Assembly: GCA_041688005.1 (NCBI GenBank)
Contig: JBDNJA010000183.1
Location: 7,952 to 71,951 of the forward strand
Length of the DNA: 64,000 nt
Direction: 5' to 3'
Source of the DNA: Gammaproteobacteria bacterium
GTDB lineage: Bacteria > Pseudomonadota > Gammaproteobacteria > GCA-001735895
Shown: positions 379-22,361 of the stretch, piece by piece
Position numbering within the stretch: position 1 is the stretch's first letter
Layout of the letters: each line of letters begins with the position of its first letter
The notes under the pieces: model-generated
The model's input: only the letters and a program-made list of their open reading frames with translations
What the model was told of the DNA's origin: nothing
Database searches by the model: none
Position numbers and translations under genes: made by a program

Positions 379-446
379 TAATTTTTTTGTGATCTGTTTT
401 TGTGCTCCTCGACAATAGCTCCTCGATAACTGCTCCTGCGCTATTC

Positions 447-512
447 TAATTAGTTACATCCCTGTAACGATGCATTGTTCTAATTAGTTATATCCATGTA
501 ACGATGCAAAAC
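447..512. repeat. Two tandem ~33-bp direct repeats (ttctaattagtta[c/t]atcc[c/a]tgtaacgatgca), preceded by three ~14-bp GCTCCTCGAyAAyw units (405-446)
   Basis: Read directly in the sequence, between the stop of the first ORF and the IS-like remnant. Confidence 0.7.
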
Positions 513-548
513 AGGCATACATACCATCCATGGTTAATCAATCGGTTA

Positions 549-942: not shown

Positions 943-999
943 TGCAAAACTATCTAGCATATTTAGGATGGGTGCTGAATAGTTATCTTATACTTTGAA

Positions 1000-1953: not shown

Positions 1954-1961
1954 TTTTAGTT

Positions 1962-2670: not shown

Positions 2671-2744
2671 AAATCTGCCTGTCTTCGATGTGATTATCGT
2701 TCAAAGCATGCTCTCGGCCAGAGAGAACTTCCATGATAACGTCT

Positions 2745-3344: not shown

Positions 3345-3424
3345 GTTACTTAGCTCTCTTATGGTTAGGATGGCCCAGTGCGGAAATTTCTGCACCGGAA
3401 CATCGATTGAAACAGTTTTATGGG

Positions 3425-4645
3425 TTAGCTTTGAATACGTTCGATAGTGACATCCTGCCCATCTCTGATTTCCCAAAGCTGGAAATGACGAGCCTTGATC
3501 ATGCCTTCGTCATCGAAATCGATTTCCGAACTGGCACCGGTATAATTGATTGCCTTACCGGCACGAAGGAGTTTAATACCTTCCAAAACATCCCAAACTC
3601 GCTCACCATTGGGGTTGGAAACCTTCCATATGTGTTTGGCTGCTTCGTTGGCATCATCAGTGCCCGCCGACTCCATGGCGAGTAGTAGAGTACTGATCTG
3701 ATCCATACCGGCAGTCCCGAAAGGGTGTTGCATGTTGCCAGTATCCTCCAAGCCCTGTAGTTTGAGATAAAATTTGTAAGCTTCGCTTTCCAGTGGGGGC
3801 ACGGGCAGGCCATGCAAAATACCGTTGGCCGCATCACCGATCGCTTTTTTGAACTTCGAACCGGTTGCAATTGAGACAGTGAATACTTTTCCTTCGTAAC
3901 CCGCACGGTATAATTCTTTATAAACAGCCGTAAAGTCAGTCACATAACTAGGAATGAAGACCGCTTTAGGGTCGTCCTCGATCAGTTTCGCCACTTCGGC
4001 ACGATAGCTGGCTTGCCCACCATTGTAGTAAAATGGTTTGTTCACAATTTCGGCACCGCCTGCAGTCACTGTCTCTACGAAACTATTAACCATGGAACTA
4101 GTGAAATCATTATTCAAAGCCATGATCGCGAAGTTTTTATAACCGTTGCTAAGTGCCAGGTCAGCGATCGCCTTACCCCAGCGTGGTGAAAGAGCCTGAA
4201 AGTTGAAGACCAACCCTTTTTTATCTTTGGCAGGAATGTCGGCAGAAGATGACGTACACATCTGGATGACATTAGCTTCCTGACAAAGCGGCATGATACC
4301 CAGAGTGACAGATGATGAAAAGGTGCCGATAATGGCTTTGACCTTGTTTACGTCAACCAGTTTACGAGCCGCGCGAATCGCTGTTTCCGGATTGGTTTCC
4401 GAATTATTCTGAAATAACTCGACTCGACGACCTAGTATGCCACCCGCTGCGTTGACCCGATCAACAATTGATTTATGGGCCGCAGTGATTGTGGGGCCAA
4501 AGGGTCCGCCACCACCGGTGTTCGGTGTCAGGCTGCCGATGTTGATCGGGCCGTTGGCCCAGACCAGATTTGGAATGAAAGCCGTTGTAAATACCGTTGC
4601 TGCGGTTGCCTTCAATATTGTTCTACGCGTATGCTTTATAGTCAT
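3425..4645 (-). CDS. ABC transporter substrate-binding protein, HAAT/LivK family, with a Tat-type signal (RRTILKATAA)
   Basis: 406 aa type-I periplasmic binding fold of the branched-chain amino acid binding family; twin-arginine leader. Confidence 0.75.
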   Translation of the reverse strand: MTIKHTRRTILKATAATVFTTAFIPNLVWANGPINIGSLTPNTGGGGPFGPTITAAHKSIVDRVNAAGGILGRRVELFQNNSETNPETAIRAARKLVDVNKVKAIIGTFSSSVTLGIMPLCQEANVIQMCTSSSADIPAKDKKGLVFNFQALSPRWGKAIADLALSNGYKNFAIMALNNDFTSSMVNSFVETVTAGGAEIVNKPFYYNGGQASYRAEVAKLIEDDPKAVFIPSYVTDFTAVYKELYRAGYEGKVFTVSIATGSKFKKAIGDAANGILHGLPVPPLESEAYKFYLKLQGLEDTGNMQHPFGTAGMDQISTLLLAMESAGTDDANEAAKHIWKVSNPNGERVWDVLEGIKLLRAGKAINYTGASSEIDFDDEGMIKARHFQLWEIRDGQDVTIERIQS

Positions 4646-4687
4646 TTAATACTCCTCGGTTTTGGTGATAAAGTTAAAAAAATATCG

Positions 4688-5611
4688 TTAATTTACTCGG
4701 GTCGTTTTAATGCCTACCGGAGCCTGAAATTTTGGTTCGGGGAGTAGCCCCTGTGGTCGAAAACGAATCACCAAAATCAATAGAACCCCAATGAATATAA
4801 TTCGGATCGCCGAAAGGCTTTCAGCGTCAACAAAGGACACGAAATCTCCAAGAAACCGCGAACCTTCCAGAATCAACATGACAACCCCGGCTCCGATAAG
4901 GAGCCCATTGTTATTGCCTGCTCCGCCAACGATTACCGACATCCATATAAAAATGGCTACCATCGGAACGAAATGATCGGGGCTAATGCTTTGCACGTAG
5001 TGGGCGTAAAGCGCGCCTGCAATACACATAAACATGGAGCCTATGGAGAACACCTGTACACGATAGAAAAAAGCGTTCTTACCCAGCGTTTCTGTAACAA
5101 CATCGTCTTCGCGTATGGCACGCATTACTCGACCGTAAGGTGCCCGACGCATTTTTTCCACAATGAAATAGACGATAAGAACGGTAAGCGCGACAATGCC
5201 CAGATAGAAAATGCCGTATTCGTTTCGATCGAAGGATTCTGACATAGGACGAACATCAATGGACAGACCACGCGGACCACGAGTGAGCCAGTCTTCATTC
5301 AGCAAGAATAAACGTACAATCTCGGCAAACCCCAAAGTAACGATAGCCAGATAATCACCGCGCAAACGAACCGACAGCATTGAAAGGAATGCACCTGCCA
5401 CCAGGCCCATCAGCCCAGCCGACGCTACTCCGGCAAGAAATGGAAAGCCTACATAGACGGTTAACAATCCGCTGGTATAGGCGCCCATGCCAAAAAAACC
5501 GGCAATACCGAAATTCACCATCCCGGTGAGACCCCATTGAAGATTCAATGCGAGGGCAAGAATCATGTAAAAGCCGACAAATGTTGCGATTGAAATCAGA
5601 TAAGCGCTCAT
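4688..5611 (-). CDS. HAAT-family ABC transporter permease (LivM-like)
   Basis: 307 aa polytopic membrane protein in operon position with the LivH/LivG/LivF homologues. Confidence 0.75.
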   Translation of the reverse strand: MSAYLISIATFVGFYMILALALNLQWGLTGMVNFGIAGFFGMGAYTSGLLTVYVGFPFLAGVASAGLMGLVAGAFLSMLSVRLRGDYLAIVTLGFAEIVRLFLLNEDWLTRGPRGLSIDVRPMSESFDRNEYGIFYLGIVALTVLIVYFIVEKMRRAPYGRVMRAIREDDVVTETLGKNAFFYRVQVFSIGSMFMCIAGALYAHYVQSISPDHFVPMVAIFIWMSVIVGGAGNNNGLLIGAGVVMLILEGSRFLGDFVSFVDAESLSAIRIIFIGVLLILVIRFRPQGLLPEPKFQAPVGIKTTRVN

Positions 5612-5620
5612 GATGTTCCG

Positions 5621-6481
5621 TTATTTTTTGATTTCTGGCTGGCCGAACAAGCCATGTGGACGAAAAAATAAGAGCAGGGTGATAATAACGAAGCCGACCC
5701 CCACCTTGTATGAAGGTTCGAAAAAATGTCCGGTCAGCTCTTCAGCAATACCAACGAGAACTGCGCCCACCATAGCTCCATAGGGAGATCCGATACCACC
5801 GAGAATCGCAGCGGCAAATACCGGAATGGTCAGTGACCAGCCCAGTTGTGGCTCGATCACTAAATCGACTCCTGCGAATACCCCGGCAAGTCCAATAAGT
5901 GCGCCGCCCAGCAGCCAAGTCGCACCAATCACGCGATTGGTATTGATGCCACGCACCTCTGCCAGAGCGAAGTTATCGGAAGTTGCTCGCATGGCCTTTC
6001 CCAGGCGGGTGTATTTGAGCAGAGCATGAACCAGAAGCATAGCCACAATCGCGGTGCCGATGATCCACAATTGATCTGGAGTGAACTTGATACCAGCAAA
6101 TTTAATGGGTCTTTCGAGCGGCAATTCAAAGCCACGAACGTCGTTTCCATAAAATAGCCGGATAATATTTTCGACAATCATGCTGAGGGCGATGGATACA
6201 ATCAGTAATGAGATAGAATGGCTTTCCCGCATCGCTTTGAAAATAATCACATCAGACAACCACATTGCCACCGAGGTAAATGCCATAGCTCCAATGGCCG
6301 CTACCCATATGGGAGCACCAAAAGTGACATTGAGTGTTAAAGCGATGAAAGCGCCGACAGTCATGAATGTACCTACGGCAAAATTGGGAAAACGTAATAT
6401 TCCGAACAACATGGTGAAAGCGATGGCTGGCAGAGCGATAATCGCTCCATCCATCAGGCCGTAAAAAAGTATCTGCCCCAT
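5621..6481 (-). CDS. HAAT-family ABC transporter permease (LivH-like)
   Basis: 286 aa; N-terminal resemblance to LivH (MGQILFYGLMDGAIIALPAIAFTMLFGIL). Confidence 0.75.
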   Translation of the reverse strand: MGQILFYGLMDGAIIALPAIAFTMLFGILRFPNFAVGTFMTVGAFIALTLNVTFGAPIWVAAIGAMAFTSVAMWLSDVIIFKAMRESHSISLLIVSIALSMIVENIIRLFYGNDVRGFELPLERPIKFAGIKFTPDQLWIIGTAIVAMLLVHALLKYTRLGKAMRATSDNFALAEVRGINTNRVIGATWLLGGALIGLAGVFAGVDLVIEPQLGWSLTIPVFAAAILGGIGSPYGAMVGAVLVGIAEELTGHFFEPSYKVGVGFVIITLLLFFRPHGLFGQPEIKK

Positions 6482-7194
6482 CAGTCGGTAACCCCAAGAT
6501 AAAGGTGGCGAACCTCAGTATCGTTCAGCAGGGCCTCTGCGGTATCAGCGAGTTTGACTTGCCCACCCGCCAGTACATAACCCCGGTGCGACATTTTGAG
6601 TGCCTGGATAGCGTTTTGCTCAACCATATAGATTGCGACACCGTCAGAATTGACATCGCATATTATCTGAAACATTTCCTCTACCAGTTTGGGTGAAAGC
6701 CCAGCTGAGGGTTCATCGAGTAAAAGTATGTTTGGATCAGCCATTAAAGCCATACCCAAAGCGACCATTTGACGCTGCCCGCCTGAAAGGTTACCCGCAG
6801 TAGCATTACGCCGCTCCTTAAGTGGGGGAAATAGTTCGTAAACTTTTTCCAGTCGCGCTTTCTTGCCAGGTTTGGATATCCAGTCACCCAAATCAAGATT
6901 TTCCTGAACGCTTAACTTGCGAAATACATTTCCCTCCTGAGGTACGTAGGACATGCCCAGATGGGCAACATCAGATGCTCGCAAATCCGCCGTTGGTTTG
7001 TTGTGCAAGTGGATGCTACCTTCACGAACCTTTACCAGCCCAGCGATAGTTTTGATCAGGGTGGACTTCCCTGCGCCGTTCGGTCCGATTACAGTTACGA
7101 TTTCTCCCTCGTCGACATGCATATCGACGCCCTTGATAATGTCATTTCCACCATAGCCAGAAAAGACGCCTTCAACTCTCAGAATACTGCTCAC
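6481..7194 (-). CDS. ABC transporter ATP-binding protein (LivF-like)
   Basis: Walker A GPNGAGKST, signature LSGGQRQ, 237 aa. Confidence 0.8.
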   Translation of the reverse strand: MSSILRVEGVFSGYGGNDIIKGVDMHVDEGEIVTVIGPNGAGKSTLIKTIAGLVKVREGSIHLHNKPTADLRASDVAHLGMSYVPQEGNVFRKLSVQENLDLGDWISKPGKKARLEKVYELFPPLKERRNATAGNLSGGQRQMVALGMALMADPNILLLDEPSAGLSPKLVEEMFQIICDVNSDGVAIYMVEQNAIQALKMSHRGYVLAGGQVKLADTAEALLNDTEVRHLYLGVTD

Positions 7195-7982
7195 GAACTC
7201 ACCCCCAGATAGGCTTCCATCACCTTTGCATCATGAGTAACCTGATGAAAACTGCCTTCAATCAAATGCCGCCCCTGGGCCATTACTACGACGTGGTGGC
7301 ATAGTGCTTTGACCAGTTCCATATCGTGCTCGACAATTAAAAAAGTCTTGCCGGTTTCCTGGTTCAGCTTTGCAATCGTTTCCATCAACAGGCCCATCAA
7401 GGATGGGTTCACTCCGGCTGCAGGTTCATCCAGAAGAATAAGATCAGGATTAATCATCAATGCTCTTGCCAGTTCAAGAAGCTTTTTTTGGCCACCAGAC
7501 AAATTTCCTGCATATTCATCACAAACATGTGTCAGTTTGACCATATCCAGAACTTCACGAGCGCGGGTGAGTATTTCCTGTTCCTGTAACCGAATAGCTG
7601 CAGGTCGAGTAAAAACAGGGATCAGCTTCTCTCCAATTTGGTTTTGCGCTGCCAGCATAATGTTTTCGAGAACTGTCATGCCTGACATCTCCCTCGATAA
7701 CTGAAAGGTGCGAATCATCCCCTTGCGTGCAATTTTATAAGGTTTCAACCTGGTAATGTCTTCTCCGAACAGTAACGCCTCGCCGTGGTCAGCACGGATA
7801 ACACCTGAAACCAAATTAAAAAGTGTCGATTTGCCTGCGCCATTTGGACCGATCAATCCAGTAATAGTACCGCGTTGTACCTTTAACGACATGTCATCGA
7901 CGGCAACTAACCCACCAAATGCTTTACTGAGACCACGGCACTCCAGTACTGAGTCCTTATCATCGGGCCAGGGCTGTGTAGT
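7191..7982 (-). CDS. ABC transporter ATP-binding protein (LivG-like)
   Basis: Walker A GPNGAGKST, signature LSGGQKK. Start reassigned to MTTQPWPDD, because the listed 314-aa ORF would overlap the tetR gene by about 90 bp. Confidence 0.75.
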   Translation of the reverse strand, partial: TTQPWPDDKDSVLECRGLSKAFGGLVAVDDMSLKVQRGTITGLIGPNGAGKSTLFNLVSGVIRADHGEALLFGEDITRLKPYKIARKGMIRTFQLSREMSGMTVLENIMLAAQNQIGEKLIPVFTRPAAIRLQEQEILTRAREVLDMVKLTHVCDEYAGNLSGGQKKLLELARALMINPDLILLDEPAAGVNPSLMGLLMETIAKLNQETGKTFLIVEHDMELVKALCHHVVVMAQGRHLIEGSFHQVTHDAKVMEAYLGVSS

Positions 7983-8046
7983 CATACGCGGGGGCCCTTT
8001 GAAAAAGCAATTCGTCGCCATAAAAACAAAATAAAGTTGAGCACTA

Positions 8047-8676
8047 TCATGCTGCCAGCGTGGATTGTTGCTGAATAAGAATTGATATCGCTTTCTTCCA
8101 GTCCAGAAGTGACTGATTTGTAATGGCTGGGTCACGGGAATAGATCGATTGCACGGCCAGTCCCCGTAAAAAAGACAGCGTCATATTGAGAAGACTGCGG
8201 GAATCTTCCTGGCTCATCCCGGTCGCAGTAAAAATCTTGCCTCCTATCTTTTCGTAGCTGTCAAATAATTGCTGCGCTCGTTTTACTAAAGGATCGTGCA
8301 AAGCAGGATCACCTCGGCTAGCAATAACCATTTCGAGTGAAGAAAATATATTACGATTATTGAAGATGCGGTGCCACATTTCATCCACAACCTCGGTGAC
8401 ATTCAACTGACCATTTTTTGATGATTCGGCAATATTCCTGAGATCTTCTTCAATCTGGCTCCAGATTTGATCGACGACATCCAGTAGGAGATCATTTTTG
8501 CCTTGATAATGGTGGTTCAAGGCGCCTCGGGTCAAGCCGGCTCGTCGGGAAATCTCGGTCAGCGTTGTATGTCCATAGCCTATCGTAGACAGGCACTCCA
8601 AGGCAGCACTACGAAGACGCTGACGGGTGTCACTGCTTCTTTGCGACTGCATGCGACGTGCGATTTGCACCGCCAT
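8047..8676 (-). CDS. TetR family transcriptional regulator
   Basis: N-terminal HTH (...GYGHTTLTEISRRAGLTRGALNHHYQGKNDLL) typical of TetR/AcrR regulators. Confidence 0.8.
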   Translation of the reverse strand: MAVQIARRMQSQRSSDTRQRLRSAALECLSTIGYGHTTLTEISRRAGLTRGALNHHYQGKNDLLLDVVDQIWSQIEEDLRNIAESSKNGQLNVTEVVDEMWHRIFNNRNIFSSLEMVIASRGDPALHDPLVKRAQQLFDSYEKIGGKIFTATGMSQEDSRSLLNMTLSFLRGLAVQSIYSRDPAITNQSLLDWKKAISILIQQQSTLAA

Positions 8677-8718
8677 TTACGTCTCCTGATCCATATCTTA
8701 GATCTCCATGGTTAATTT

Positions 8719-8744
8719 ACATACATACATGGATGTATGTATGT
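8719..8744. promoter_or_regulatory. Perfect 12-bp inverted repeat ACATACATACAT-gg-ATGTATGTATGT; candidate TetR operator
   Basis: Read directly; lies 43 bp upstream of the tetR start, in the divergent region. Confidence 0.5.
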
Positions 8745-9427
8745 TTTATCATAACTTGAAGGTAATTGCAAAATTCTGGAGACGAGCAAATATATTAGCT
8801 AAACAACACCAATAAAAAAGAGTGACTGGCCCACTCACTGGTTAAAATGAGGAGCGAAAAAAACAATCACTCGGGCCGGATTTTAATGAATCAGACACGC
8901 ACCGAAGCGTGCCTACTAAGACTAAGTCAACAATAAAGGACAGGCTCTCAATGTTCTGTCAACGCTTAACCATTACCATTACTGACAACCGTCCATGACT
9001 CGGGGTTCTGGCGGCTTGCTAGACCTTACCTGATAAAGGACTTTCACCTTCAATCTTCTGCCGATTTATCTCGGCGAACTGTCTGTCCCTTTTTTTACTC
9101 TTTATCCTACTATCATTAAAGCAGTGTGATTTTAGATAGGACAATGGTGCGTTAGTAGTTTGAATTATAGTGAAGCAATGCGGGGCGAATCTTCATAAGC
9201 TTCGGGTTGTAGCACTCAATGGGTGATGGACTTGTGTGGTGCAAACCATTATGCAGGAAAATACACACCATGTTTATCGCCTAATGTATCACTTCGCAAA
9301 GCGTGTTATAAGTAACATTCTTATCGTTCAAAAAAGACCAGAAATAGAAGGGGGAGAGAAATCCAAGATTCCCGTGAACCCCTGAAAAGAAGCGGTAATG
9401 TGATTATTTAATCTAAGGAGAAAGGAG

Positions 9428-9853
9428 ATGCAAGACAATCACAATAACGCAGGTGTGATTCGGGTAATGTTAGCTAAGATCGGTCTAGATGGTCATGATC
9501 GAGGCATAAAAGTTGTCGCACGTGCGTTACGGGATGCTGGCATGGACGTGGTCTATACTGGACTGCATCGCACGCCGGAGGAAGTCGTGGATGCCGCCAT
9601 CCAGGAAGATGTAGATATCCTTGGGGTCAGCCTGCTTTCGGGTGCCCACATGCACATTTTTCCTAAAGTACTGGAACTTCTGAAAGCGAGGGAAGCGGAA
9701 GACATGATCGTTGCGGGTGGCGGTGTCATCCCTGACGACGATGTTAAAGAACTGTATCAGATGGGCGTCCAGAAAATTCTTCTCCAGGACACTCCTCCTC
9801 AGGAAATTATTGATTCCTTCCGGCAATTGGTTGCAGACCGTGGTGCGCGATAA
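9428..9853 (+). CDS. Acyl-CoA mutase small subunit, cobalamin (B12)-binding domain protein
   Basis: 141 aa with the DxHxxG B12-binding motif (LDGHDRGIKVV); strong RBS aaggagaaaggag upstream. Confidence 0.8.
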   Translation: MQDNHNNAGVIRVMLAKIGLDGHDRGIKVVARALRDAGMDVVYTGLHRTPEEVVDAAIQEDVDILGVSLLSGAHMHIFPKVLELLKAREAEDMIVAGGGVIPDDDVKELYQMGVQKILLQDTPPQEIIDSFRQLVADRGAR

Positions 9854-9927
9854 GTACGACTACATGGGAAGTCGAGTGTACATGACAGATTTCCTTAGAC
9901 GATAATTAATAATATCAGGAGTCTCCG

Positions 9928-11349
9928 ATGAAAGAGTGGATTTTCCCCCCTACTTACAACAACGACTACTATCCTGAACCGAGTAGCCCCTACTGGTTTC
10001 GGGACCGAGAAACGATGGATCCGGACAAGCGTGATGAGCTAATTGTTGCACGCATCCGGGACGTCATGGCCTATGCTTACGATCACTCACCATTTTACCA
10101 ACGCAAATGGGACGAGGCCGGTATAAAGGCCAATCATATCCGTACTCTTGCTGACTTCGAGCAGGTTCCTGTCGTCACGAAGCAGGAACTGCGTGATTCC
10201 CAGGCGAAAACCCCACCCTTCGGGGACTACCTTTGCTGTCTGGAAAGCGATATACATCATATCCATGGTACTTCCGGCACAACCGGTCGGCCTACCACCT
10301 TCGGTATTTCTCGGAGCGACTGGGACACCATTGCCAATAACCATGCTCGGATTATGTGGGGGATGGGTCTAAGGCCCGGAGATACTGTGTTTGTGGCTGC
10401 CATTCTTAGCCTCTATATGGGGTCCTGGGGTGCTTTGATAGGGGCCGAGAGACTAGGCTGCAAGGCCTTTCCTTTCGGCGCCGGCGCTCCAGGAATGACT
10501 GTGCGAGCAGTGACCTGGCTGGGAATGATGAAACCTGCAGGACTTTACTCCACTCCCTCCTACGCGCTTAGGCTGGCGGAAGTGGCCCGTGCGGAAGGGA
10601 TTGATCCCAAGGAGTTCGGCATCAAGGTGTTATTCTTCTCAGGTGAGCCGGGCGGGTCCATTCCGTCCATACGGGACAAGATTCAGGATATCTACGGTGC
10701 CAAGGTGATTGACTGCGGAACCATGGCTGAGCTGACGCCGTGGATGCACGCTTCCGGAAGCGCCGACACCGAAGGCATGCTGCTGTGGCAGGACATTGTC
10801 TACACCGAAGTAGCGGACCCCGTCACTCATCGACGCGTTCCCTACGGAGAACAAGGAACACCCATTTATACCCACCTCGAACGTACCTCTCAGCCAATGA
10901 TCCGCATGTTTTCCGGCGACCTAACCCATTGGGTGATGGAAGATAACCCCTGCGGCCGCACTTACCCGAGACTTCCAAAAGGCATTTACGGGCGGATCGA
11001 CGACATGTTCCAGATTCGGGGTGAAAACGTCTATCCCAGCGCCATTGCTGAAATTCTGGAAGGCCTGGCCGGTTATGGCGGCGAACACCGAATCATCATT
11101 TCACGTGAGGGCTCAATGGATGAGTTGGCCGTGCAGGCAGAATTTGACCAGCAGACCGCTAGCAAGGGTCCGGATGCAGTCAAGGCCTTCTCAGAACGAG
11201 CGCAGGCTGAGCTGAGACGAGTGCTGGGTGTACGGGCACGGGTTATCATGGTCGAGCCAGACACCTTTCTACGCACGGACTTCAAGGCCCAGCGAGTGGT
11301 TGACGACCGAAATCTTTACCACAGTTTTGACCAGGAACAAGGGGGTTAA
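9928..11349 (+). CDS. Phenylacetate-CoA ligase (PaaK) family adenylate-forming enzyme; candidate 2-hydroxyisobutyrate-CoA ligase
   Basis: 473 aa, PaaK-family size and motifs (GTSGTTGRPT). Position between the mutase subunits mirrors the hcl gene of characterised hcm clusters; that functional link is from the literature. Confidence 0.6.
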   Translation: MKEWIFPPTYNNDYYPEPSSPYWFRDRETMDPDKRDELIVARIRDVMAYAYDHSPFYQRKWDEAGIKANHIRTLADFEQVPVVTKQELRDSQAKTPPFGDYLCCLESDIHHIHGTSGTTGRPTTFGISRSDWDTIANNHARIMWGMGLRPGDTVFVAAILSLYMGSWGALIGAERLGCKAFPFGAGAPGMTVRAVTWLGMMKPAGLYSTPSYALRLAEVARAEGIDPKEFGIKVLFFSGEPGGSIPSIRDKIQDIYGAKVIDCGTMAELTPWMHASGSADTEGMLLWQDIVYTEVADPVTHRRVPYGEQGTPIYTHLERTSQPMIRMFSGDLTHWVMEDNPCGRTYPRLPKGIYGRIDDMFQIRGENVYPSAIAEILEGLAGYGGEHRIIISREGSMDELAVQAEFDQQTASKGPDAVKAFSERAQAELRRVLGVRARVIMVEPDTFLRTDFKAQRVVDDRNLYHSFDQEQGG

Positions 11350-12321
11350 ATGATTAACCGTATACCCTCAATGACTCTGGCTGATAGAGTTCTAAAAGGG
11401 CATATCCGCGCCATTGCTAGGCTTATTACCCGGGTTGAAAGTGGCGACCCGGAAGTGCGACAGGCCCTAGCCAAATTATATAAAAGCACCGGCCGAGCCC
11501 ACGTGGTGGGTATTACCGGTGTGCCGGGGGCAGGAAAGTCGACCCTCGTTGCACAGCTGGTCCATGAATACCGAGCAAGTGGCCGCACGGTGGGTATCGT
11601 TGCCATTGATCCCTCAAGTCCCTTTTCTGGTGGTGCAATCCTCGGTGATCGTATACGTATGGGCGATCTGGTTTCTGACCCGGGAGTTTTCATCCGAAGT
11701 ATGGCCACCCGGGGAACTTTGGGCGGCCTGGCTAGGCCAGCCTTGGATGCAGTCGACCTCCTGGATGCAGGAGGGTTCGACGTGGTTCTGATCGAGACGG
11801 TCGGGGTGGGTCAGGATGAAGTCGATATCGTGCGTGCGGCTCACACCACAGTGGTTGTCAACGCACCTGGTCTGGGCGACGACATTCAGGCCATAAAAGC
11901 AGGTATCTTGGAGATTGCCGATGTGCATGTGGTGAGCAAAGCGGATCGGCCAGATTCCAACAAAACCATACAGGAACTCAAGGGCATGCTGACGATGAGT
12001 CTTGAACCGGGTGAGGGAATCTGGCGAGTGCCGGTGGTGCCAACCAGTTCAGAAAACCACACAGGTTTCGGCGAGTTGATGGCTGCGATTGATCACCACG
12101 CAGAACACTTGGAACGAAGTGGTGAAATCACCGAACGGCGACGCCAGATTACGTTAACCCGGGTGGTGAAAGTTGCCGAAGAAATCGTCCGGGACAATTT
12201 TGTACGTGACAGCAGGTCGCAAACCGAAGAACTGCTTAAAAAGGTGACTCAACGCGAACTGGATCCCCATGGGGCCGCGGTGACCTTGCTAAAAACTATG
12301 AAGGAGACGATTCATGAATGA
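11350..12321 (+). CDS. MeaB/ArgK-type G-protein chaperone of B12-dependent mutases
   Basis: 323 aa, P-loop GVPGAGKST, MeaB-like; 1-bp gap from the ligase gene and 8-bp overlap with the large subunit. Confidence 0.85.
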   Translation: MINRIPSMTLADRVLKGHIRAIARLITRVESGDPEVRQALAKLYKSTGRAHVVGITGVPGAGKSTLVAQLVHEYRASGRTVGIVAIDPSSPFSGGAILGDRIRMGDLVSDPGVFIRSMATRGTLGGLARPALDAVDLLDAGGFDVVLIETVGVGQDEVDIVRAAHTTVVVNAPGLGDDIQAIKAGILEIADVHVVSKADRPDSNKTIQELKGMLTMSLEPGEGIWRVPVVPTSSENHTGFGELMAAIDHHAEHLERSGEITERRRQITLTRVVKVAEEIVRDNFVRDSRSQTEELLKKVTQRELDPHGAAVTLLKTMKETIHE

Positions 12322-14008
12322 CACTGACCAGTATGACCCCGCTGCACTCAAGCACATTGAAAAAGAGTTTGACCAGTGGGAAAAAAACGAAGTTTCATCC
12401 TTTGTAAAACGGACGCCAGAGAGCCAGTCAGAGTATACCACTGCTTCCGGTATGCCGACGAAACGCACGTATACACCACTGGATATCAAAGACACTGCGT
12501 TCAAGGATGTTGGCCTTCCTGGGCAATATCCATTCACCCGGGGACCATACCCCACCATGTACCGGGGCCGAAACTGGACAATGCGCCAAATCGCCGGCTT
12601 CGGTACGGCCAAGGAAACCAACGGGCGTTTCAAGTATCTGATCGCTCAAGGTCAGACTGGCCTGTCGATAGATTTCGACATGCCCACGTTGATGGGATAT
12701 GACTCTAGTCATACCATGTGCCAGGGAGAGGTAGGCCGCGAAGGAGTTGCCATCGACACCCTGGCTGATATGGAGGAATTGTTCGATAACATTGATCTGA
12801 CGAAAATTTCAGTTTCCATGACCATCAATCCGTCAGCATGGATACTCTACGCCATGTACATTGCTCTGGCGCAGAGTCGCGATTATGACCTTAATGACCT
12901 GTCAGGTACCATCCAGAATGACATTCTTAAGGAGTACATTGCCCAGAAGGAATGGATATTCCCGGTGCGTCCCTCGGTTCGCCTAGTCCGTGACTGTATT
13001 CAGTACGGCTCTAAGCACATGAAACGGTATAATGCTATCAATATTTCCGGCTACCACATATCGGAAGCCGGCTCGACCGCTGTGCAGGAGGTGGCATACA
13101 CCATGGCCAACGCCATGGTGTATGTCCGGACAGCAATCGACGCAGGGGTGGATGTCAATGAATTCGGCCCCCGCCTCTCGTTCTTCTTTGTAAGCCAGGC
13201 AGATTTCTTTGAGGAAATTGCCAAGTTCCGTGCGGCCAGGCGGGTATACGCTAAGATCATGCGCGAAAAATTCGGTGCCACAAAACCCGAGGCCAGCCGG
13301 TTGCGCTTCCACGCACAAACCGCGGCAGCGACCCTGACCAAACCACAGTATACAATCAACCCGATTCGCACCGCGCTCCAGGCGTTGTCCGCCGTGTTGG
13401 GTGGGGCGCAGTCGCTACATACCAACGGCATGGATGAGGCTTTTGCCATTCCCACTGAGGAGGCCATGCGGATAGCCCTCCGCACACAGCAAATCATCGC
13501 TTACGAGACCAATATCACACAGGTTGTGGACCCTTTGGGCGGTTCCTACTATGTTGAAAGTCTAACCAACGAGATTGAGCAGGAAGTCTGGAAAATTCTC
13601 AACGAGGTTGAAGAGCTTGGTGGTACCTTGCAGTGTATCGACGATGGTTACTTTCAGAGAGGCATCTCTGATTCCGCTTACGATTTCGCGTTACGCAAGG
13701 CCAGCGGAGAAAGGCCTGTTATCGGCGTGAATATGTTCGTGCAGGAGGAAGATGTCAAAATTGAAACGCATCCCCACGACCCGGAAACAGAGAGCCGGCA
13801 GATTGAACGCCTGAGAAGGGTCAAGAATGGTCGCGATGAGAAAAAAGTTCAGACCATGCTCGGGCAGCTGAAAGAACAGGCTGAAGACGAATCAGTAAAC
13901 CTCATGCCGATCACCATTGAGTTGGTGAAAGAGGGGGCGTCGATGGGCGACATTGTTGAAACGCTTAAAGGCATTTGGGGGACCTATCGTGAAAAACCTG
14001 TAATCTAA
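12314..14008 (+). CDS. Acyl-CoA mutase large (substrate-binding) subunit, with the HcmA-type specificity triad
   Basis: 564 aa mutase catalytic domain with no fused B12 domain. The key sites read RQ-I-AGFGTA, LS-I-D-FD and YIA-Q-KEW, i.e. Ile/Asp/Gln. MCM has Tyr/Ala/Arg and ICM has Phe/Ala/Gln at these sites. Confidence 0.6.
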   Translation: MNDTDQYDPAALKHIEKEFDQWEKNEVSSFVKRTPESQSEYTTASGMPTKRTYTPLDIKDTAFKDVGLPGQYPFTRGPYPTMYRGRNWTMRQIAGFGTAKETNGRFKYLIAQGQTGLSIDFDMPTLMGYDSSHTMCQGEVGREGVAIDTLADMEELFDNIDLTKISVSMTINPSAWILYAMYIALAQSRDYDLNDLSGTIQNDILKEYIAQKEWIFPVRPSVRLVRDCIQYGSKHMKRYNAINISGYHISEAGSTAVQEVAYTMANAMVYVRTAIDAGVDVNEFGPRLSFFFVSQADFFEEIAKFRAARRVYAKIMREKFGATKPEASRLRFHAQTAAATLTKPQYTINPIRTALQALSAVLGGAQSLHTNGMDEAFAIPTEEAMRIALRTQQIIAYETNITQVVDPLGGSYYVESLTNEIEQEVWKILNEVEELGGTLQCIDDGYFQRGISDSAYDFALRKASGERPVIGVNMFVQEEDVKIETHPHDPETESRQIERLRRVKNGRDEKKVQTMLGQLKEQAEDESVNLMPITIELVKEGASMGDIVETLKGIWGTYREKPVI

Positions 14009-14048
14009 TCGCCTTTTTACTGACTAAAGCGGGTCACTACAGGGACAA

Positions 14049-14153
14049 ATGGTTAGACTCACCAAGATATATATCAAAACCGGAGATAAAGGCGATACCG
14101 GCCTGGGCGATGGTAGCCGGGTCGTGAAGTACGACCTGATGCCCGGACTGTGA
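14049..14153 (+). pseudogene. Truncated PduO-type ATP:cob(I)alamin adenosyltransferase remnant (first ~34 codons only)
   Basis: MVRLTKIYIKTGDKGDTGLGDGSRVVKYDLMPGL* closely matches the conserved N-terminus of PduO/MMAB-type ATR (MVKLSKIYTRTGDKGETGLGDGSRVSKDD...). Homology stops at a stop codon and no continuation appears in any frame. Confidence 0.55.
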
Positions 14154-14829
14154 CTCGCCGAGCTGGCCAGGCACTCGCTGGAGCCGTGCCGGCGCCCATA
14201 TTCCAAGGCTTAGCTCCATTATAAAGACGGAACTGTTCGGTACCTAGTCTGGGGGCACAGAATATGTGATTGGCCCTGAAACTAGAGTAAACGTCTCGGC
14301 AATCACACCTAGGAAGAAATTCACTGCAGCCTAAACTGACAGTCCAGTTATTCATTGTGGTTTTAAAGTGAATGAAAATACGCCAACGTCGAAGTCCGGC
14401 AGAATGGCGAGTATTGTTAAACGCGCAATTGAGATAGTCAGTTATGTGTAGTCGACTTTTCTCGTTTGCAAAGCCTGGATACCAAGTACTTTAGTAAACG
14501 TAAACGCGCATTTGAAGCCGATGAAATAACGCCACCTCAAAATAGCGTCGTCAAACTTGGCCGTGGTTTCTCGCTAGCAGCCATCTGTGCCTATTTTTGT
14601 CTGTAAATTGACGCATTGCTAAGCTATGAGCCAGACAACAATAAGGGTCATGAATTACCGATACTGAGGTGACAGTAGCGCACCTTTAAAGCAGGTAATA
14701 CTTTTTCTTTAGATGGTAAAGGGGTTGGGACGTCGATGGGACTGCGTACGCTTGCCTACAACTCGCGTTTCGGCGGAGGTAAGCGGCACAGCAGCGCAGG
14801 AGCACTCGCGCCTGGCACGCAATGTCTCT

Positions 14830-15726
14830 TCAGCTGGCATCTACGCCAGCTGCCTCAAAAAGCCATTCTCGGAAGGCTTTGACTTTTTTGCTCTGCCGCT
14901 CGCTGGCCCGGCAAGAGACAAAATGGGTCTCCTCGGCCAGAGGCAAAAACTGCTCCGGCCCCAGCTCGACCAGTTCGCCGCGCAACAGTTCGCGCTCGGC
15001 CAAGCGGAGGCTTTCCAGCGTCACCCCCATGCCGTCAGCCGCCGCCGAGATGGACAGGGCCGCGCGGTCAAACGAGGGGCGGGGTCGCGCTGGCAGTGTC
15101 AACCCGTTCAGCGCAAACCACTGGGGCCAGGTCACGCCGCTGAGTTGAGAGTCGATCAGCATCAGCTCGAGAATTTGCTGGGTAACTGGTTGGTCTGCCT
15201 TGAGCAGAACCGGAGAACACAGTGGCGCGATGCGTTCCGTGCCCAGCGCCACCGCAACCACACCGGCACGTTTTTGCACCGCCCCATAAGAAATCGCAAT
15301 GTCTACCTCTTGCACCCGGGTCAGGTCTATCAGTTCGGCACCGGAAGTCAGGCGCAGGGTGATGTCCGGGTGGGTCTGCATAAACACGGACAAGCGCGGG
15401 CTCAGCCATTTGGCGGCGAAACTGGGTGAGCAATGTAGCGCCAGTACCTGCGCTTGCGGTGCCAGAGCCACCTCGTCACAGGCCGCCTCGATGACGTCAA
15501 ACACGCGGGACAGGCTCTCGCACAGGCGCCGGCCCTGGGCAGTTAGCTCGACGCGGCGGTTGCCACGGGTAAACAGGGGCAAGGAAAAATACGTTTCCAG
15601 AGCTCGCACCTGGTGGCTGATGGCCGACTGGGTCAGATGCAGCTCCTGTCCGGCTAGGGTGAAACTTTCGAGGCGGGCGGCAGACTCAAATGCTCGCAGC
15701 AAGGCAAAGCTTGGCATGTGCCTCAT
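14830..15726 (-). CDS. LysR family transcriptional regulator
   Basis: N-terminal HTH (SFTLAGQELHLTQSAISHQVRALE); about 62-65% GC, far above the flanks. Confidence 0.8.
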   Translation of the reverse strand: MRHMPSFALLRAFESAARLESFTLAGQELHLTQSAISHQVRALETYFSLPLFTRGNRRVELTAQGRRLCESLSRVFDVIEAACDEVALAPQAQVLALHCSPSFAAKWLSPRLSVFMQTHPDITLRLTSGAELIDLTRVQEVDIAISYGAVQKRAGVVAVALGTERIAPLCSPVLLKADQPVTQQILELMLIDSQLSGVTWPQWFALNGLTLPARPRPSFDRAALSISAAADGMGVTLESLRLAERELLRGELVELGPEQFLPLAEETHFVSCRASERQSKKVKAFREWLFEAAGVDAS

Positions 15727-15842
15727 GTTGTTGGCCTATTCATGAATAGAATTCATTTTTTCATGAATATTCATCGCTTGTCAACGCATTCAAAGCGCGC
15801 ACTATATAATCCTCTGTTCAAACTCAGTCCGAAGGTGGGAAA
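15727..15842. promoter_or_regulatory. Divergent promoter region with TTCATGAATAGAATTCA and TGAATATTCA palindromic LysR-type boxes
   Basis: Overlapping TGAAT..ATTCA inverted repeats read directly between the LysR gene and the aldolase gene. Confidence 0.45.
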
Positions 15843-16703
15843 ATGTCATCCGTATTGGAAACCAGTCTAAAAACCGACAACAGCAACACCATTGATCTGG
15901 GCAAAGACCCGGTGTCTATTTATCAGCCAGAAGACCCGACGCTGATTTTTCCGAATCTTCCCAAGTTTTCCAGTTCGGCCGAAGAGCGTCGGCATCTGAA
16001 AGAACGGCTGGTGGCGTCGTGCCGCGCCTTTGCCCTGCAAAATTTTGACTATGGCTTCGCCGGCCATCTGACGGTGCGCGACCCGGAAAACCCGAGCCTG
16101 TATTGGACCAATCCAATGGCTGTGCATTTCTCGCAGGTCAAGGTATCCAACCTAATTCTAGCCGATCACAGCGGCAAGGTGGTGCAGGGCAAGCACGCCA
16201 TCAACCGTGCTGGATTTGTCTTGCACTCGGCCGTGCATGAGGCACACCCCGACATTGTGGCCATGTGCCACGCCCACACGGTGTACGGCACGGCGTTTGC
16301 GGCATTAGGAAAAAAGCTGGAGCCGATTACGCAGGATGCCTGCGCCTTTTTTGAAGACCATGTGGTCATTGGTGACGACGCCGGCCAGGTCACGGTGGAA
16401 GTCAAGGCCGGACACAAAGTCGCCCAGGCCTTCAAGGGCGTCAAAGCCGCGATTCATCAGAACCACGGCCTGCTCACAGGAAGCCGCCACAGCATTGAGT
16501 CTGCAGCGTTCTGGTTCATCGCGCTGGAACGTTGCTGTCAGCAACAGTTGTTAGTCGAAGCGAGCGGTGTGACACCTCGCTTGGTGTCGCCGGACCGAGC
16601 GCGTTACAGTCGCAAGCATGTGGGTAGCGACTACATCGGCTGGCTGCACTTTCAGTCGATCTGGGAGCAGCTGGTCGAAACCCAGCCGGACATGTTTGAC
16701 TAA
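15843..16703 (+). CDS. Class II aldolase/adducin family protein
   Basis: 286 aa; metal-binding His cluster (CHAHTVYG) typical of the class II aldolase/adducin fold; GC-rich. Confidence 0.7.
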   Translation: MSSVLETSLKTDNSNTIDLGKDPVSIYQPEDPTLIFPNLPKFSSSAEERRHLKERLVASCRAFALQNFDYGFAGHLTVRDPENPSLYWTNPMAVHFSQVKVSNLILADHSGKVVQGKHAINRAGFVLHSAVHEAHPDIVAMCHAHTVYGTAFAALGKKLEPITQDACAFFEDHVVIGDDAGQVTVEVKAGHKVAQAFKGVKAAIHQNHGLLTGSRHSIESAAFWFIALERCCQQQLLVEASGVTPRLVSPDRARYSRKHVGSDYIGWLHFQSIWEQLVETQPDMFD

Positions 16704-16764
16704 GAGAGTTGGGGCGATACCGATGTACTTTTTTCACCACTGCGAGCGAAACGTATGCTGTGAT

Positions 16765-17868
16765 TCAGGTCATGCCAACTGGACTAAAAAACCAATCAAG
16801 TAATTTTTGTTGAACGTCACTAACATGTGAAAAAGCCCAATGAGGGTTTTTGTCTTTATCTACTAATAACGCCCTGACACCTTCGCAAGTTTCAGAATAC
16901 TGACAACAACGAAGGGTTAAGTTTAACTCTGATGCAAAACATTCGCTTAAACTAAGACCTTTAGTCACTTGTAGTTGTTGATATATAATGCAAGCACTAA
17001 GAGGGCTACCCGCCATCAATTTGTTTTTTGCCTGCGCCAGCCATTTATTTTCTGTTTTGAGACTTAGGATAGCGGTGTGTATGTCAACGATATTATCGAA
17101 AGCCAGTAACTTTGCTATATCCGCTTTATTTGCTCTTAATTCAGAATGTAAATAATGTGTGAAATTGTTTGAAAATTTTAACAATAATCGATCTAGTAAT
17201 TCATAATTGCTATCATTTTTTTGCCACTCTATTTCCTGTAAAGACTTATAAATTAAATTTTTTGTTGAACTGTCAATAATATAATGCGTCAGGCCAATAT
17301 ATTTTGCATCTTCAGCATTAAAAAAAGCACCTGTGATCCCTAAAAAAAGCCCCATATCATCTGGCATTTTATTTAAAAACCAACTCGCGCCCACATCAGG
17401 GTATAATCCAATGGATACTTCGGGCATGGCCATCAAAGTGCGTTCGGTTGTGACTCGATGACTGGCACCTGCAAATAAACCTATTCCGCCTCCCATGATA
17501 TAGCCATCACCCCATACCATAATGGGTTTCTTAAATTTATGAATCAATTGATCAAGTCGGTATTCTTGGCTAAAAAACTCATGAGCGAAACCTGTTTTAA
17601 TTATATGGTCATCTATTAAGGCTGGTAGATCATTAAGATAGTGATAAAGGCTAACAACATCACCCCCTGCGCAAAATGCTTTCTCACTTATACTTTGCAT
17701 AACAACGAGAGCTATACTGTCATCTTGTTCCCAACAAGTCAGTTGCCGTATTAAAAGCTTAATCATCGAAAGATTTAATGCATTAAGAGACTTAGGAGCA
17801 TTAAGTTCTGCTATCCCTATTTTTTTATTATTCTTACTGCTTAACTCTTTAAATATCACTTCACTCAT
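16765..17868 (-). CDS. Enoyl-CoA hydratase/isomerase family protein, 3-hydroxyisobutyryl-CoA hydrolase-like (ECH_2)
   Basis: 367 aa; crotonase fold with the HIBCH-like architecture (AFCAGGDV, GGGIGL); about 33% GC. Confidence 0.65.
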   Translation of the reverse strand: MSEVIFKELSSKNNKKIGIAELNAPKSLNALNLSMIKLLIRQLTCWEQDDSIALVVMQSISEKAFCAGGDVVSLYHYLNDLPALIDDHIIKTGFAHEFFSQEYRLDQLIHKFKKPIMVWGDGYIMGGGIGLFAGASHRVTTERTLMAMPEVSIGLYPDVGASWFLNKMPDDMGLFLGITGAFFNAEDAKYIGLTHYIIDSSTKNLIYKSLQEIEWQKNDSNYELLDRLLLKFSNNFTHYLHSELRANKADIAKLLAFDNIVDIHTAILSLKTENKWLAQAKNKLMAGSPLSACIIYQQLQVTKGLSLSECFASELNLTLRCCQYSETCEGVRALLVDKDKNPHWAFSHVSDVQQKLLDWFFSPVGMT

Positions 17869-17982
17869 TCAGTTCAGCTCCCATTATTTCGCTATTTAAT
17901 AAGCTATTATAACGTTACATTAACATGGCTCTGCACTAACTTACTGTTCCACAGGTTCATGTTATGAGCCACCTTCAACTTA

Positions 17983-18270
17983 TAATACTTCCCTATCTAT
18001 TGTGGGCATGATAGCGGCTACTGGACCCAAAAACATCACCGTTATGAATGTACCAAATGCCATCAGCAGACATCCGCCACCGCTGGCACACTGTTTCACG
18101 GCACTAAGCTCCCATTAACCAAGTGGTTCTGGACTGTGTACTTGATCGGTTCCGATAAAAGCGGCATATCTGCATTACGACTATCAAAATTCATCTTGAT
18201 TAGCACTATTGTTCAGCTAACGTTTGTGAAGGGTAAAACTGATCGGGAAATGGGCCCATCGATATAACCA
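17983..18270 (+). mobile_element. IS1595-family (ISXO2-like) transposase N-terminal remnant, with no intact ORF
   Basis: Translation ...IYCGHDSGYWTQNITRYECTKCHQQTSATAGTLFHGTKLPLTKWFWTVYLIGSDKSGISALRLSKF... matches the IS1595 N-terminal zinc-ribbon/HTH region (CxxC...SGTIFHxTKLPLxKWFxAIYLMxxxKKGISALQL); it ends in a stop and no DDE domain follows. Confidence 0.55.
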
Positions 18271-18682
18271 TGGATACAATACTGGGTGTTTCACTGGTTT
18301 TGTGTGGAATCGGTGTTCAGCTTCGCAGGAATACGCACCAGGTATAGCTGCCCGCGAACGCTCGAGCGTTCTCATTATTGGTTGGTTATTGCGAGTCAGG
18401 CAGACTTTTTCAGGGTTCGTGGCTTTTTAGAAAATTGTGAGGCGTAAAGCTTTTCACAATTTAAGAGTGCCTATTCTTGAAACACCCTCTTCTTTATTTT
18501 CATGCGGCGCGGCGCAATACGCTTCACTATCCCCCTACGATGGCGGATGGGCGTGTTTGGTGTGAGGGTAGAGATTTGTGATCAGGTCTTTTCAAGTCTC
18601 ATCAATAATATTGGAATTCGATGTAGAAAGATCTACCCCGTTTTCCCCTGGGCTCTCGATTAGATGTGGTCGGTGCCACACA

Positions 18683-19108
18683 CTACCATACACTTTCTAC
18701 CGATGGATCATCATAACGCTCTAGTTTAGCCAACCATTCAGGCATACCTTTCTTAATAGTAAGCTCCAATTCATTTATTTCCTCAGTACCTACTAATTCT
18801 TTTTCATGCATAAACGTATAGAATTTTTTAAGTGAAACTGCATTGTTCTTAATTGATGATTGACTTGCCCACATTGCTTTTTTAATAAACCAATAACCAA
18901 GAAACATACTAACTTCATTGGCACCATCTTGTGCCTCAGTTGCATCCTCGTAAAGTAAATAGTCGTTGATATAAAAATCGATATTCGAAATATGCTTCTC
19001 AATTACTTTTTTTGATAAATTTGATGCATCAAGCCACGTTCCAAATCCATTTAGTAGGATGCCATTTTCTTTCCTAATTTCATTACAATCTTCTTCGTAG
19101 TTATCCAT
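18683..19108 (-). CDS. hypothetical protein (AT-rich, acidic; no recognisable family)
   Basis: 141 aa ORF with protein-like composition and about 33% GC; immediately downstream of the IS1595 remnant. Confidence 0.45.
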   Translation of the reverse strand: MDNYEEDCNEIRKENGILLNGFGTWLDASNLSKKVIEKHISNIDFYINDYLLYEDATEAQDGANEVSMFLGYWFIKKAMWASQSSIKNNAVSLKKFYTFMHEKELVGTEEINELELTIKKGMPEWLAKLERYDDPSVESVW

Positions 19109-19274
19109 TTATATCTCGTTTTTAAAATTTAATTTGCATCTAATACTTAGTACGACGGCGGAATAAACTGACCGATGTTTTTTGGTTTCTCTGCAAAAAG
19201 CACGACGCATTATGAAGTTCATTGGTGCTACTGGTTCTATTTAAAGACCCATCCCGTTTTTGCGCTAACCACCC

Positions 19275-19733: not shown

Positions 19734-20059
19734 GTGTAGGATGAAGAAGGAAAATGGCTGCTTATAATAGAACCTGCCCGTACCAAAGTATAGGGGGAGT
19801 CTTCCGGAAAACCAAAGGGGCGACCAATATCGATTGAAATCTACATTTAGTTAGATTCCCTTTTTTCATCTCATCCACATGCACTACTACCAAGGTGCAT
19901 GAGAAGTTTCTCGGACGGGACTTTAGCCCGCTAGCTTGATCGCCGATGACGGCGTGTGGGCGGCCCTTTGCTTCTTGCTCAGCCCAGAGGGGCTCCCTAC
20001 AGCACTCTGTACAAATAGATCTTGCCTTTAGCTTAACGCTACTATACTGTCCTCGCCGC

Positions 20060-20300
20060 AAAGGTGTCCACTCAGGTGGATTAAACGGGAAGTTGGTGCG
20101 AATGTTTTTCAGGTTCAATTCCGACGCTGCCCCCGCAACGGTAAACAGATAATGCAACATGAATACCACTGAGTTAATCCTCGGGAAGGTATGTTGTCAG
20201 ATTCAAATTGAATCAGTTTGTGAGCCCGGAGACCGGCCTTTGCGATAAGTGATATTACGGCGGGTTTTATCCAAGTTTAATGAAATCATTAACCTTTTCC
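20060..20300 (+). ncRNA. Cobalamin (AdoCbl) riboswitch in the btuB leader
   Basis: Conserved blocks present: GGGAAgttGGTGcGAAT ... GCTGCCCCCGCAACGGTAA ... aCCACTG (B12 box) ... GGGAAGG; these match the E. coli btuB leader element by element. It lies directly upstream of a TonB-dependent receptor. Confidence 0.8.
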
Positions 20301-20355
20301 GCTTCGGTATCTTGAATTTTTTATTTCATCGGTACGGGCGGTACCAGGGGTTATT

Positions 20356-22311: not shown

Positions 22312-22361
22312 CCCAGACAAGGGCCCGTTAGCAGGGCCCTCGGCAATCCTGGAATAGGTAT

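Follow-up and report, generated by a model that had tools for sequence, protein, structure and literature searches.

The stretch of DNA analyzed here (64,000 nucleotides of contig JBDNJA010000183.1 from assembly GCA_041688005.1, filed as a Gammaproteobacteria bacterium, and called the window below) carries at positions 9428–14008 a four-gene cassette whose products correspond to the parts of the adenosylcobalamin-dependent 2-hydroxyisobutyryl-CoA mutase system:

9428–9853, plus strand: hcmB, small B12-binding subunit of 2-hydroxyisobutyryl-CoA mutase (141 aa; DGHDRG, of the DxHxxG type, at D21–G26)
9928–11349, plus strand: hcl, 2-hydroxyisobutyrate-CoA ligase of the PaaK-like ANL family (473 aa)
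11350–12321, plus strand: meaH, MeaB-type G-protein chaperone of the mutase (323 aa)
12314–14008, plus strand: hcmA, large substrate-binding subunit of the mutase (564 aa; Ile93/Asp120/Gln211)

These four co-directional and tightly packed genes had been described with the same coordinates and lengths in an earlier reading of the DNA made from its letters alone (the sequence-only reading), and the listing of open reading frames (ORFs) reproduced them. The gap between hcmB and hcl is 74 nt, the hcl stop codon abuts the meaH start codon, and meaH overlaps hcmA by 8 nt; an intact and good Shine–Dalgarno sequence (AAGGAGAAAGGAGATG) precedes the hcmB start codon, and the four genes are predicted to be translationally coupled. 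It is very probable, as judged from the comparisons described below, that the segment constitutes the complete catalytic core of the 2-hydroxyisobutyric acid (2-HIBA) mutase pathway, acquired horizontally from a Marinobacter-type operon.

The identity of the encoded proteins was addressed by comparing the large subunit, the small subunit, and the ligase with all solved structures (HMMER alignments), the identities to the crystal sequences being taken from BLASTP. The best match of HcmA is the crystallized HcmA 4r3u_A (861.7 bits, E = 1.7e-258, 68% identity), with lower scores for the methylmalonyl-CoA mutases (395–438 bits; 437.8 for MCM) and for IcmF (262.1 bits), and the best match of HcmB is the small subunit of the same structure, 4r3u_C (196.9 bits, 70% identity). 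The ligase, which the sequence-only reading had placed in the PaaK family, is of the HCL type, matching 2-hydroxyisobutyryl-CoA synthetase (6hdw) at 687.3 bits and 60% identity against 229.8 bits for PaaK, with the HCL acyl pocket (Tyr164/Ser239) kept. At the level of family models, the large subunit contains the acyl-CoA mutase domain (PF01642, 695 bits) and HcmB the domain PF02310 (91.5 bits), and three proteins narrowly defined by equivalog models can be set aside by their cut-offs, namely PaaK for the ligase (256.9 versus 646.3 bits) and both MCM (NF006944; 585.8 versus 876 bits) and IcmF (325.8 versus 1500 bits) for the large subunit. The MeaB-type GTPase also proposed in the sequence-only reading scores 340.4 bits with the MeaB equivalog TIGR00750 (cut-off 240.75) and 305.3 bits with PF03308, and its gene adjoins and overlaps hcmA. 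The motifs DGHDRG in HcmB, GVPGAGKS (P-loop) and SKAD in MeaH, and TSGTTG in HCL are all intact.

The residues that set substrate specificity agree with these assignments. The large subunit reads RQ-I93-AGFGTA, LSI-D120-FD, and YIA-Q211-KEW, exactly as the sequence-only reading had it, and in the HMMER alignments the three positions fall in the columns occupied by Ile/Asp/Gln in crystallized HcmA (4r3u_A) and by Tyr/Ala/Arg in human MCM, so that the triad lies in the specificity columns, as had been supposed. The native 562-aa HcmA of Methylibium petroleiphilum PM1, 99.6% identical to the crystal sequence, has Ile, Asp, and Gln at residues 90, 117, and 208; the HcmA numbering and the 27-residue Ile-to-Asp spacing on which the earlier proposal had relied are therefore right. 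The large subunit thus has Ile/Asp/Gln in place of the Tyr/Ala/Arg of MCM, and shares only Gln with the Phe/Ala/Gln of isobutyryl-CoA mutase (Icm). The Asp of the HcmA triad (Asp117) is tied to (S)-specificity. In the ligase, Y163 and S238 align with Tyr164 and Ser239 of HCL, the two residues reported to make its acyl pocket small and polar (PMC8388817). All known specificity determinants of both the mutase and the ligase are conserved, and the sequence shows the cassette to encode an HCL-pocket ligase, a B12 mutase of two subunits (base-off/His-on) with the Hcm residues, and a MeaB-type chaperone.

How far the triad marks the pathway was seen in a scan of species-representative genomes for relatives of the large subunit, which gave at least 80 loci; the counts given here refer to the 80 loci listed. 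Ile/Asp/Gln is present in all 20 loci with at least 63% identity to the large subunit, and in 18 of them an hcl homologue is adjacent at the same offset, with the gene order of the window; the two without a full hcl are a 3.5-kb contig cut upstream and a locus (L007) with a partial match. Phe/Ala/Gln is present in all 60 loci at about 50% identity, none of which has hcl nearby. The type of triad separates perfectly with hcl linkage across the 80 genomes. A neighbor-joining tree, built without named Ecm, Pcm, or RcmA sequences, places the window HcmA beside Marinobacter, followed by Arhodomonas and a gammaproteobacterial metagenome-assembled genome (MAG), and this group lies within the clade of the crystallized HcmA of Aquincola tertiaricarbonis, apart from the Phe/Ala/Gln clade; the phylogeny thus bears out the placement proposed for the large subunit. 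Structure matches, triad, gene order, and the linkage of the triad to hcl all agree with the assignment of the sequence-only reading, that of an HcmAB-type 2-hydroxyisobutyryl-CoA mutase, with an HCL-type ligase and a MeaB-like chaperone, which we regard as strongly supported. The listed Ile/Asp/Gln loci are spread over Gamma-, Beta-, and Alphaproteobacteria, Methylomirabilota/Rokuibacteriota, and Conexibacter, and plasmid-borne copies include those of Xanthobacter autotrophicus Py2, PM1, Mycobacterium sp. ELW1, and Sinorhizobium medicae. The locus L007, from an uncultured betaproteobacterium, carries hcmB, meaH, and hcmA of the Ile/Asp/Gln type at 7040–11632, with no hcl match covering at least 60% of the ligase; its ligase gene may be an hcl pseudogene or encode a divergent ligase.

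The cassette is worth comparing with the characterized systems. The cluster of A. tertiaricarbonis L108 and M. petroleiphilum PM1 (plasmid RPME01, NC_008826.1, 487996–492536; structures 4R3U and 6HDW), whose PM1 proteins are 97.5–99.6% identical to the A. tertiaricarbonis crystal sequences, has the same order hcmB-hcl-meaH-hcmA, and the protein lengths correspond as the sequence-only reading had stated (141/473/323/564 aa in the window versus 136/477/327/562 aa in PM1), with identities of 70, 60, 52, and 68%, respectively. The two systems share the Ile/Asp/Gln triad, Tyr164/Ser239 of HCL, the DxHxxG motif, and the P-loop. They differ in that the PM1 cluster has a divergent gntR upstream and an adenosyltransferase gene downstream, of both of which only remnants are left in the window, and in that the reference copy resides on a conjugative megaplasmid of a betaproteobacterium degrading methyl tert-butyl ether, whereas the window copy belongs to an uncultured gammaproteobacterium from the sea and lies in a variable region that is apparently chromosomal. 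The closest relative is the hcm operon of Marinobacter (M. metalliresistant CP101118, locus L003; M. algicola, M. salarius, and others), with the same order and spacing, protein identities of 95, 90, 94, and 93% for HcmB, HCL, MeaH, and HcmA, and 84% DNA identity over 4.8 kb. Locus L003 (NZ_CP101118), the genes of which were annotated with Pfam, retains a co-directional gntR (6350–7084) and a PduO-type adenosyltransferase gene (11741–12298; PF01923, 222 bits), neither of which is intact in the window. The large subunits of the isobutyryl-CoA mutase type, including IcmF, have in common with the window protein the MM_CoA_mutase fold, a separate or fused B12 domain, a MeaB-type G-protein, and Gln at the third specificity position, but have Phe and Ala instead of Ile and Asp at the first two positions and are only about 50% identical. 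RcmAB of Kyrpidia tusciae catalyzes the same overall reaction with the same partners, hcl and meaH, as in the Hcm operon, but has been described as a remote relative of HcmAB and as preferring (R)-3-hydroxybutyryl-CoA (PMC7176365); between the window large subunit and HcmA the identity is 68%, and the Asp is retained.

In a protein search, more than 100 clusters, mostly from Marinobacter, were found at 91–94% identity to the large subunit; they include M. algicola, M. salarius, M. orientalis, M. guineae, and marine metagenomes, among them those of Tara, and several already bear the JGI name "2-hydroxyisobutanoyl-CoA mutase large subunit". Operon-like arrangements of hcl, hcmAB (or rcmAB), and meaH have been reported in many strains and from pristine habitats, including marine dinoflagellates (PMC7176365). 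The cassette is also present in Arhodomonas and in another gammaproteobacterial MAG. The strain from marine dinoflagellates is presumably M. algicola. The host is indeed gammaproteobacterial, as the sequence-only reading had supposed, but its remark that the pathway is not commonly described in this group does not hold in view of the Marinobacter-rich clusters, Arhodomonas, and the literature. The cassette is a new copy of a structurally characterized system, and its novel part is the genomic context only; with near-identical copies abundant in Marinobacter and the system already characterized both structurally and biochemically, it adds little to the enzymology. It has some value for annotation, in that the sequence supports a specific 2-HIBA pathway call for proteins whose homologues are named at NCBI only "methylmalonyl-CoA mutase family" and "AMP-binding protein".

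Referring to the characterized Aquincola system (PMC7176365), from which the activity, the stereochemistry, and the downstream steps are inferred, the cassette would operate as follows. HCL would activate 2-HIBA to 2-hydroxyisobutyryl-CoA at the expense of ATP, and the adenosylcobalamin-dependent HcmAB would then rearrange this thioester by a radical 1,2-rearrangement to 3-hydroxybutyryl-CoA, with the (S) enantiomer predicted from the Asp at the position of HcmA Asp117. The MeaH GTPase would gate the loading of the cofactor and protect both cofactor and mutase. Ordinary β-oxidation enzymes encoded elsewhere would convert the product to acetoacetyl-CoA and then to two molecules of acetyl-CoA.

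The host of the cassette is, as judged from the surrounding genes, an uncultured marine gammaproteobacterium and not a Marinobacter. The background GC content of the window is about 45%, its malate dehydrogenase is of the gammaproteobacterial type, and its DbpA reaches 91–95% identity only with metagenome or MAG proteins labeled "Gammaproteobacteria bacterium" and 71–75% with the remaining homologues, including those of SAR86, Aestuariibacter, and Kaarinaea. DNA similarity to the Marinobacter locus L003 (84%) is confined to 9357–14134 of the window, with none outside, and the downstream homology ends in the alignment near 14137. The following features mark the two ends and the spacer upstream:

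8943–9044, minus strand: group II intron fragment (RF02005, D1-D4-6; 66.7 bits, gathering score 49, E = 1.8e-16)
9287–9400, plus strand: gntR remnant, corresponding to the 3′ end of the GntR/FCD gene found ahead of hcmB in Marinobacter; upstream limit of the acquired DNA
14049–14164, plus strand: what is left of a PduO-type ATP:cob(I)alamin adenosyltransferase gene; downstream limit of the acquired DNA

With tblastn, residues 227–240 of the L003 GntR (the last 14 or so codons) are recovered at 93% identity, together with a weak collinear patch of residues 171–186. The adenosyltransferase remnant translates as MVRLTKIYIKTGDKGDTGLGDGSRVVKYD..., of which the first 29 residues are 93% identical to the L003 protein; after an internal deletion, a second patch of eight codons (ARTVTRRA) matches, and a stop codon follows at 14151. 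GntR is encoded by an intact gene in L003 and PM1 as well as in 9 of the 20 listed Ile/Asp/Gln loci, and a GntR regulator is usual upstream of hcm operons (PMC7176365); downstream of hcmA, an adenosyltransferase gene is present in Marinobacter, Arhodomonas, and PM1. The cassette thus very probably came by horizontal transfer from a Marinobacter-type operon of the order gntR-hcmB-hcl-meaH-hcmA-adenosyltransferase, and it illustrates cleanly how the core of a catabolic cassette can be preserved when the regulator and the cofactor-activating gene that belong to it decay. Since both flanking genes have decayed, regulation and cobalamin adenosylation would have to be supplied by the host, and since the window contains no adenosyltransferase gene beyond the remnant, that enzyme would have to be encoded outside it. 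The GC content at third codon positions (GC3) of the cassette (0.49–0.61) is intermediate between the Marinobacter donor and the host and 0.07–0.15 below that of Marinobacter, and synonymous third-position differences between the two copies run from G/C to A/T in 275 cases and in reverse in 136, a shift that would fit partial amelioration toward the host or, equally, a donor of lower GC content. The intron fragment has lost much of its interior and lacks an ORF for a reverse transcriptase; it is located between the TetR gene and hcmB, which are 750 nt apart, some 310 nt beyond the upstream junction of the cassette; an Rfam scan of the downstream spacer (14000–14900) found nothing.

The four core genes themselves are intact and under strong purifying selection, the ratio of nonsynonymous to synonymous substitution rates (dN/dS) relative to the Marinobacter copy being 0.03–0.05 at dS 0.7–1.0 in all four. 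Residues invariant in the clade are kept at 49 of 49 positions in HcmB, 128 of 129 in HCL, 72 of 72 in MeaH, and 205 of 206 in HcmA (454 of 456 in total). The exception in HCL is R228K (10609–10611), where 19 relatives have Arg, and that in HcmA is G190D (12881–12883); a sequencing error may lie behind either of them.

Several other explanations need to be weighed against an acquired and functional 2-HIBA cassette. That the mutase is an isobutyryl-, methylmalonyl-, ethylmalonyl-, or pivalyl-CoA mutase misread as Hcm is suggested by the generic models PF01642 and TIGR00641 and by the NCBI names of the homologues, which give no more than the methylmalonyl-CoA mutase family, and is to be regarded as negligibly probable in view of a triad that is neither Tyr/Ala/Arg nor Phe/Ala/Gln, of scores below the MCM and IcmF equivalog cut-offs, of an HcmA score twice that for MCM, and of a large subunit that falls in the clade of crystallized HcmA and is linked to an HCL-type ligase; an Icm- or MCM-type identity is refuted at the level of sequence. 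The enzymes might instead act on another substrate, such as 2-hydroxy-2-methylbutyrate, or run from 3-hydroxybutyryl-CoA to 2-hydroxyisobutyryl-CoA, given that the mutase reaction is reversible (PMC7176365) and that the proteins are only 60–70% identical to the characterized enzymes. We consider this quite unlikely, however, because the known specificity determinants of both enzymes are conserved, and, as to direction, because the ligase in the operon argues for catabolism that starts from the free acid.

A different kind of doubt concerns the assembly, in which Marinobacter-like DNA could have been joined into the contig of another gammaproteobacterium. The source appears to be an assembly from an uncultured organism, the host genes have named close homologues only among MAG proteins, the cassette protein forms a singleton cluster, and exact patterns of 26–28 nt spanning both junctions found no match in JGI metagenome contigs, which leaves the junctions without independent confirmation. 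Such a chimera is nevertheless very improbable, because the segment lies within the contig between stretches of non-Marinobacter DNA, differs by 16% in DNA from the single Marinobacter sequence compared, and has its closest database proteins at no more than 94% identity, and because the junctions lie inside eroded gene remnants, one of them an adenosyltransferase gene with an internal deletion, while the codon composition is partly shifted toward the host; eroded remnants and shifted composition together point to evolutionary decay and not to a mis-join at a shared repeat. It is also conceivable, though unlikely, that the cassette is a relic of transfer, silent or in decay, which, with no regulator, promoter, or adenosyltransferase of its own, is not expressed or cannot be loaded with adenosylcobalamin. 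Against a functional, acquired pathway stand the unmatched junction patterns and the following observations, of which those on the lost genes, the promoter, and HcmA also favor a relic. The canonical GntR and the adjacent adenosyltransferase have been lost, their genes being remnants only; upstream of hcmB no promoter could be called with conviction, the sites predicted for promoters and terminators in 8600–14900 being no commoner than in shuffled sequence; the 64-kb window shows no gene for a 3-hydroxybutyryl-CoA dehydrogenase, a thiolase, or another adenosyltransferase; and HcmA carries Asp190 where 21 relatives have an invariant Gly, a substitution that has to be counted as a caveat because the position is Gly in human MCM as well. 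The group II intron fragment in the upstream spacer and the mosaic, variable neighborhood would likewise suit a relic. On the other side, the four ORFs are of full length, with the low dN/dS and the near-complete retention of invariant residues given above; the synonymous bias toward host composition suggests long residence with the reading frames intact; and the decay has struck the flanks only, sparing the Shine–Dalgarno sequence before hcmB. A functional 2-HIBA cassette of Marinobacter-type origin therefore remains the preferred reading.

The surroundings of the cassette consist of the following features:

8047–8676, minus strand: TetR-family regulator gene, divergent from the cassette (PF00440, 43.3 bits; GC3 0.48)
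14830–15726, minus strand: LysR regulator gene (GcvA-like), forming a divergent pair with the aldolase gene
15843–16703, plus strand: class II aldolase/adducin-family protein gene (PRK06208, 382.6 bits)
16765–17868, minus strand: HIBCH/DspII-like crotonase gene (GC3 0.29)
20045–20255, plus strand: cobalamin riboswitch (RF00174, 108.8 bits)
20045–24846, plus strand: B12 uptake operon with the riboswitch and genes for a TonB-dependent receptor, a BtuF-like protein (Peripla_BP_2), and BtuC- and BtuD-like ABC proteins

Four metagenome contigs of close relatives of the host (80–89% DNA identity) share synteny with the window beginning at 19269, and upstream of that point they carry a nitrile hydratase gene and other genes instead; because the synteny begins only there, positions 1–19268 are taken as a variable region. 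This region looks like a mosaic island composed of blocks of differing composition, with a GC3 of 0.26 for an ATP-grasp gene and 0.29 for the HIBCH-like gene, 0.46–0.50 (host-like) for the ABC importer, TetR, and CMD genes, and 0.68–0.71 for the LysR and class II aldolase genes, the last two (14830–16703) looking like a separate acquired block. The B12 uptake operon, in contrast, belongs to the host core and is syntenic in related metagenome contigs that have no hcm cassette; lying 6 kb from the cassette, it is a plausible source of the cofactor.

The five-gene HAAT-type ABC importer (Peripla_BP_6, two BPD_transp_2, and two ABC_tran) and the TetR regulator reported upstream in the sequence-only reading are both real, but lie on the strand opposite to the cassette, and they were rejected as hcm partners because they are missing from all other hcm loci compared. 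The HIBCH-like gene does not lie directly downstream as had been stated, since an 820-nt spacer, the LysR gene, and the class II aldolase gene intervene; it was rejected as a partner for its GC3 of 0.29, its opposite strand, its distance, and its lack of conservation beside the cassette elsewhere, so that the suggested link of the cassette to this gene and to the importer fails on conservation for both. The LysR/aldolase block was likewise rejected for its different composition (GC3 of about 0.7) and for not being conserved. At 8719–8744, a perfect 12-nt inverted repeat (ACATACATACAT GG ATGTATGTATGT) lies 43 nt upstream of the TetR start codon and overlaps a plus-strand promoter-like site, TTTACA-18-TATGTT (8716–8745); the repeat is a possible operator for TetR, within a putative region of divergent promoters oriented toward the cassette.

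A further-reaching proposal, which we hold to be rather doubtful, is that the cassette has been kept under selection and is now wired to the host, being transcribed from a promoter in the TetR region, supplied with 2-HIBA by the HAAT importer, and with cofactor by the B12 operon. If this were the case, marine dissolved organic matter would offer 2-HIBA, or a compound closely resembling it, as a genuine substrate, and the module would be one exchanged between marine gammaproteobacterial lineages. The spread of the cassette among marine gammaproteobacteria, with its probable transfer into this uncultured lineage as one case, adds weight to the question of a natural source of 2-HIBA in the sea.

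Some other features of the window may be recorded here. Within the variable region, a 101-aa ORF of low GC content at 73–378 matches only the N-terminal part of HamA, a protein of the Hachiman defense system (105.4 bits), and the ATP-grasp gene with a GC3 of 0.26, at 1000–1953, is RimK-like. Positions 31388–36794 encode two Usp proteins, UspE, a FocA-type formate channel, and a CPA2 antiporter; this block is missing from the related contig L081, in which an FMN-dependent dehydrogenase gene is followed directly by an acetoacetate-CoA ligase gene. Finally, a catabolic cluster at 51718–58879 contains genes for an acyl-CoA ligase, the TctC and TctA components of a tripartite transporter, a GntR/UTRA regulator, and an acylating sulfoacetaldehyde dehydrogenase of the SauS type, which scores 736.4 bits (cut-off 600).

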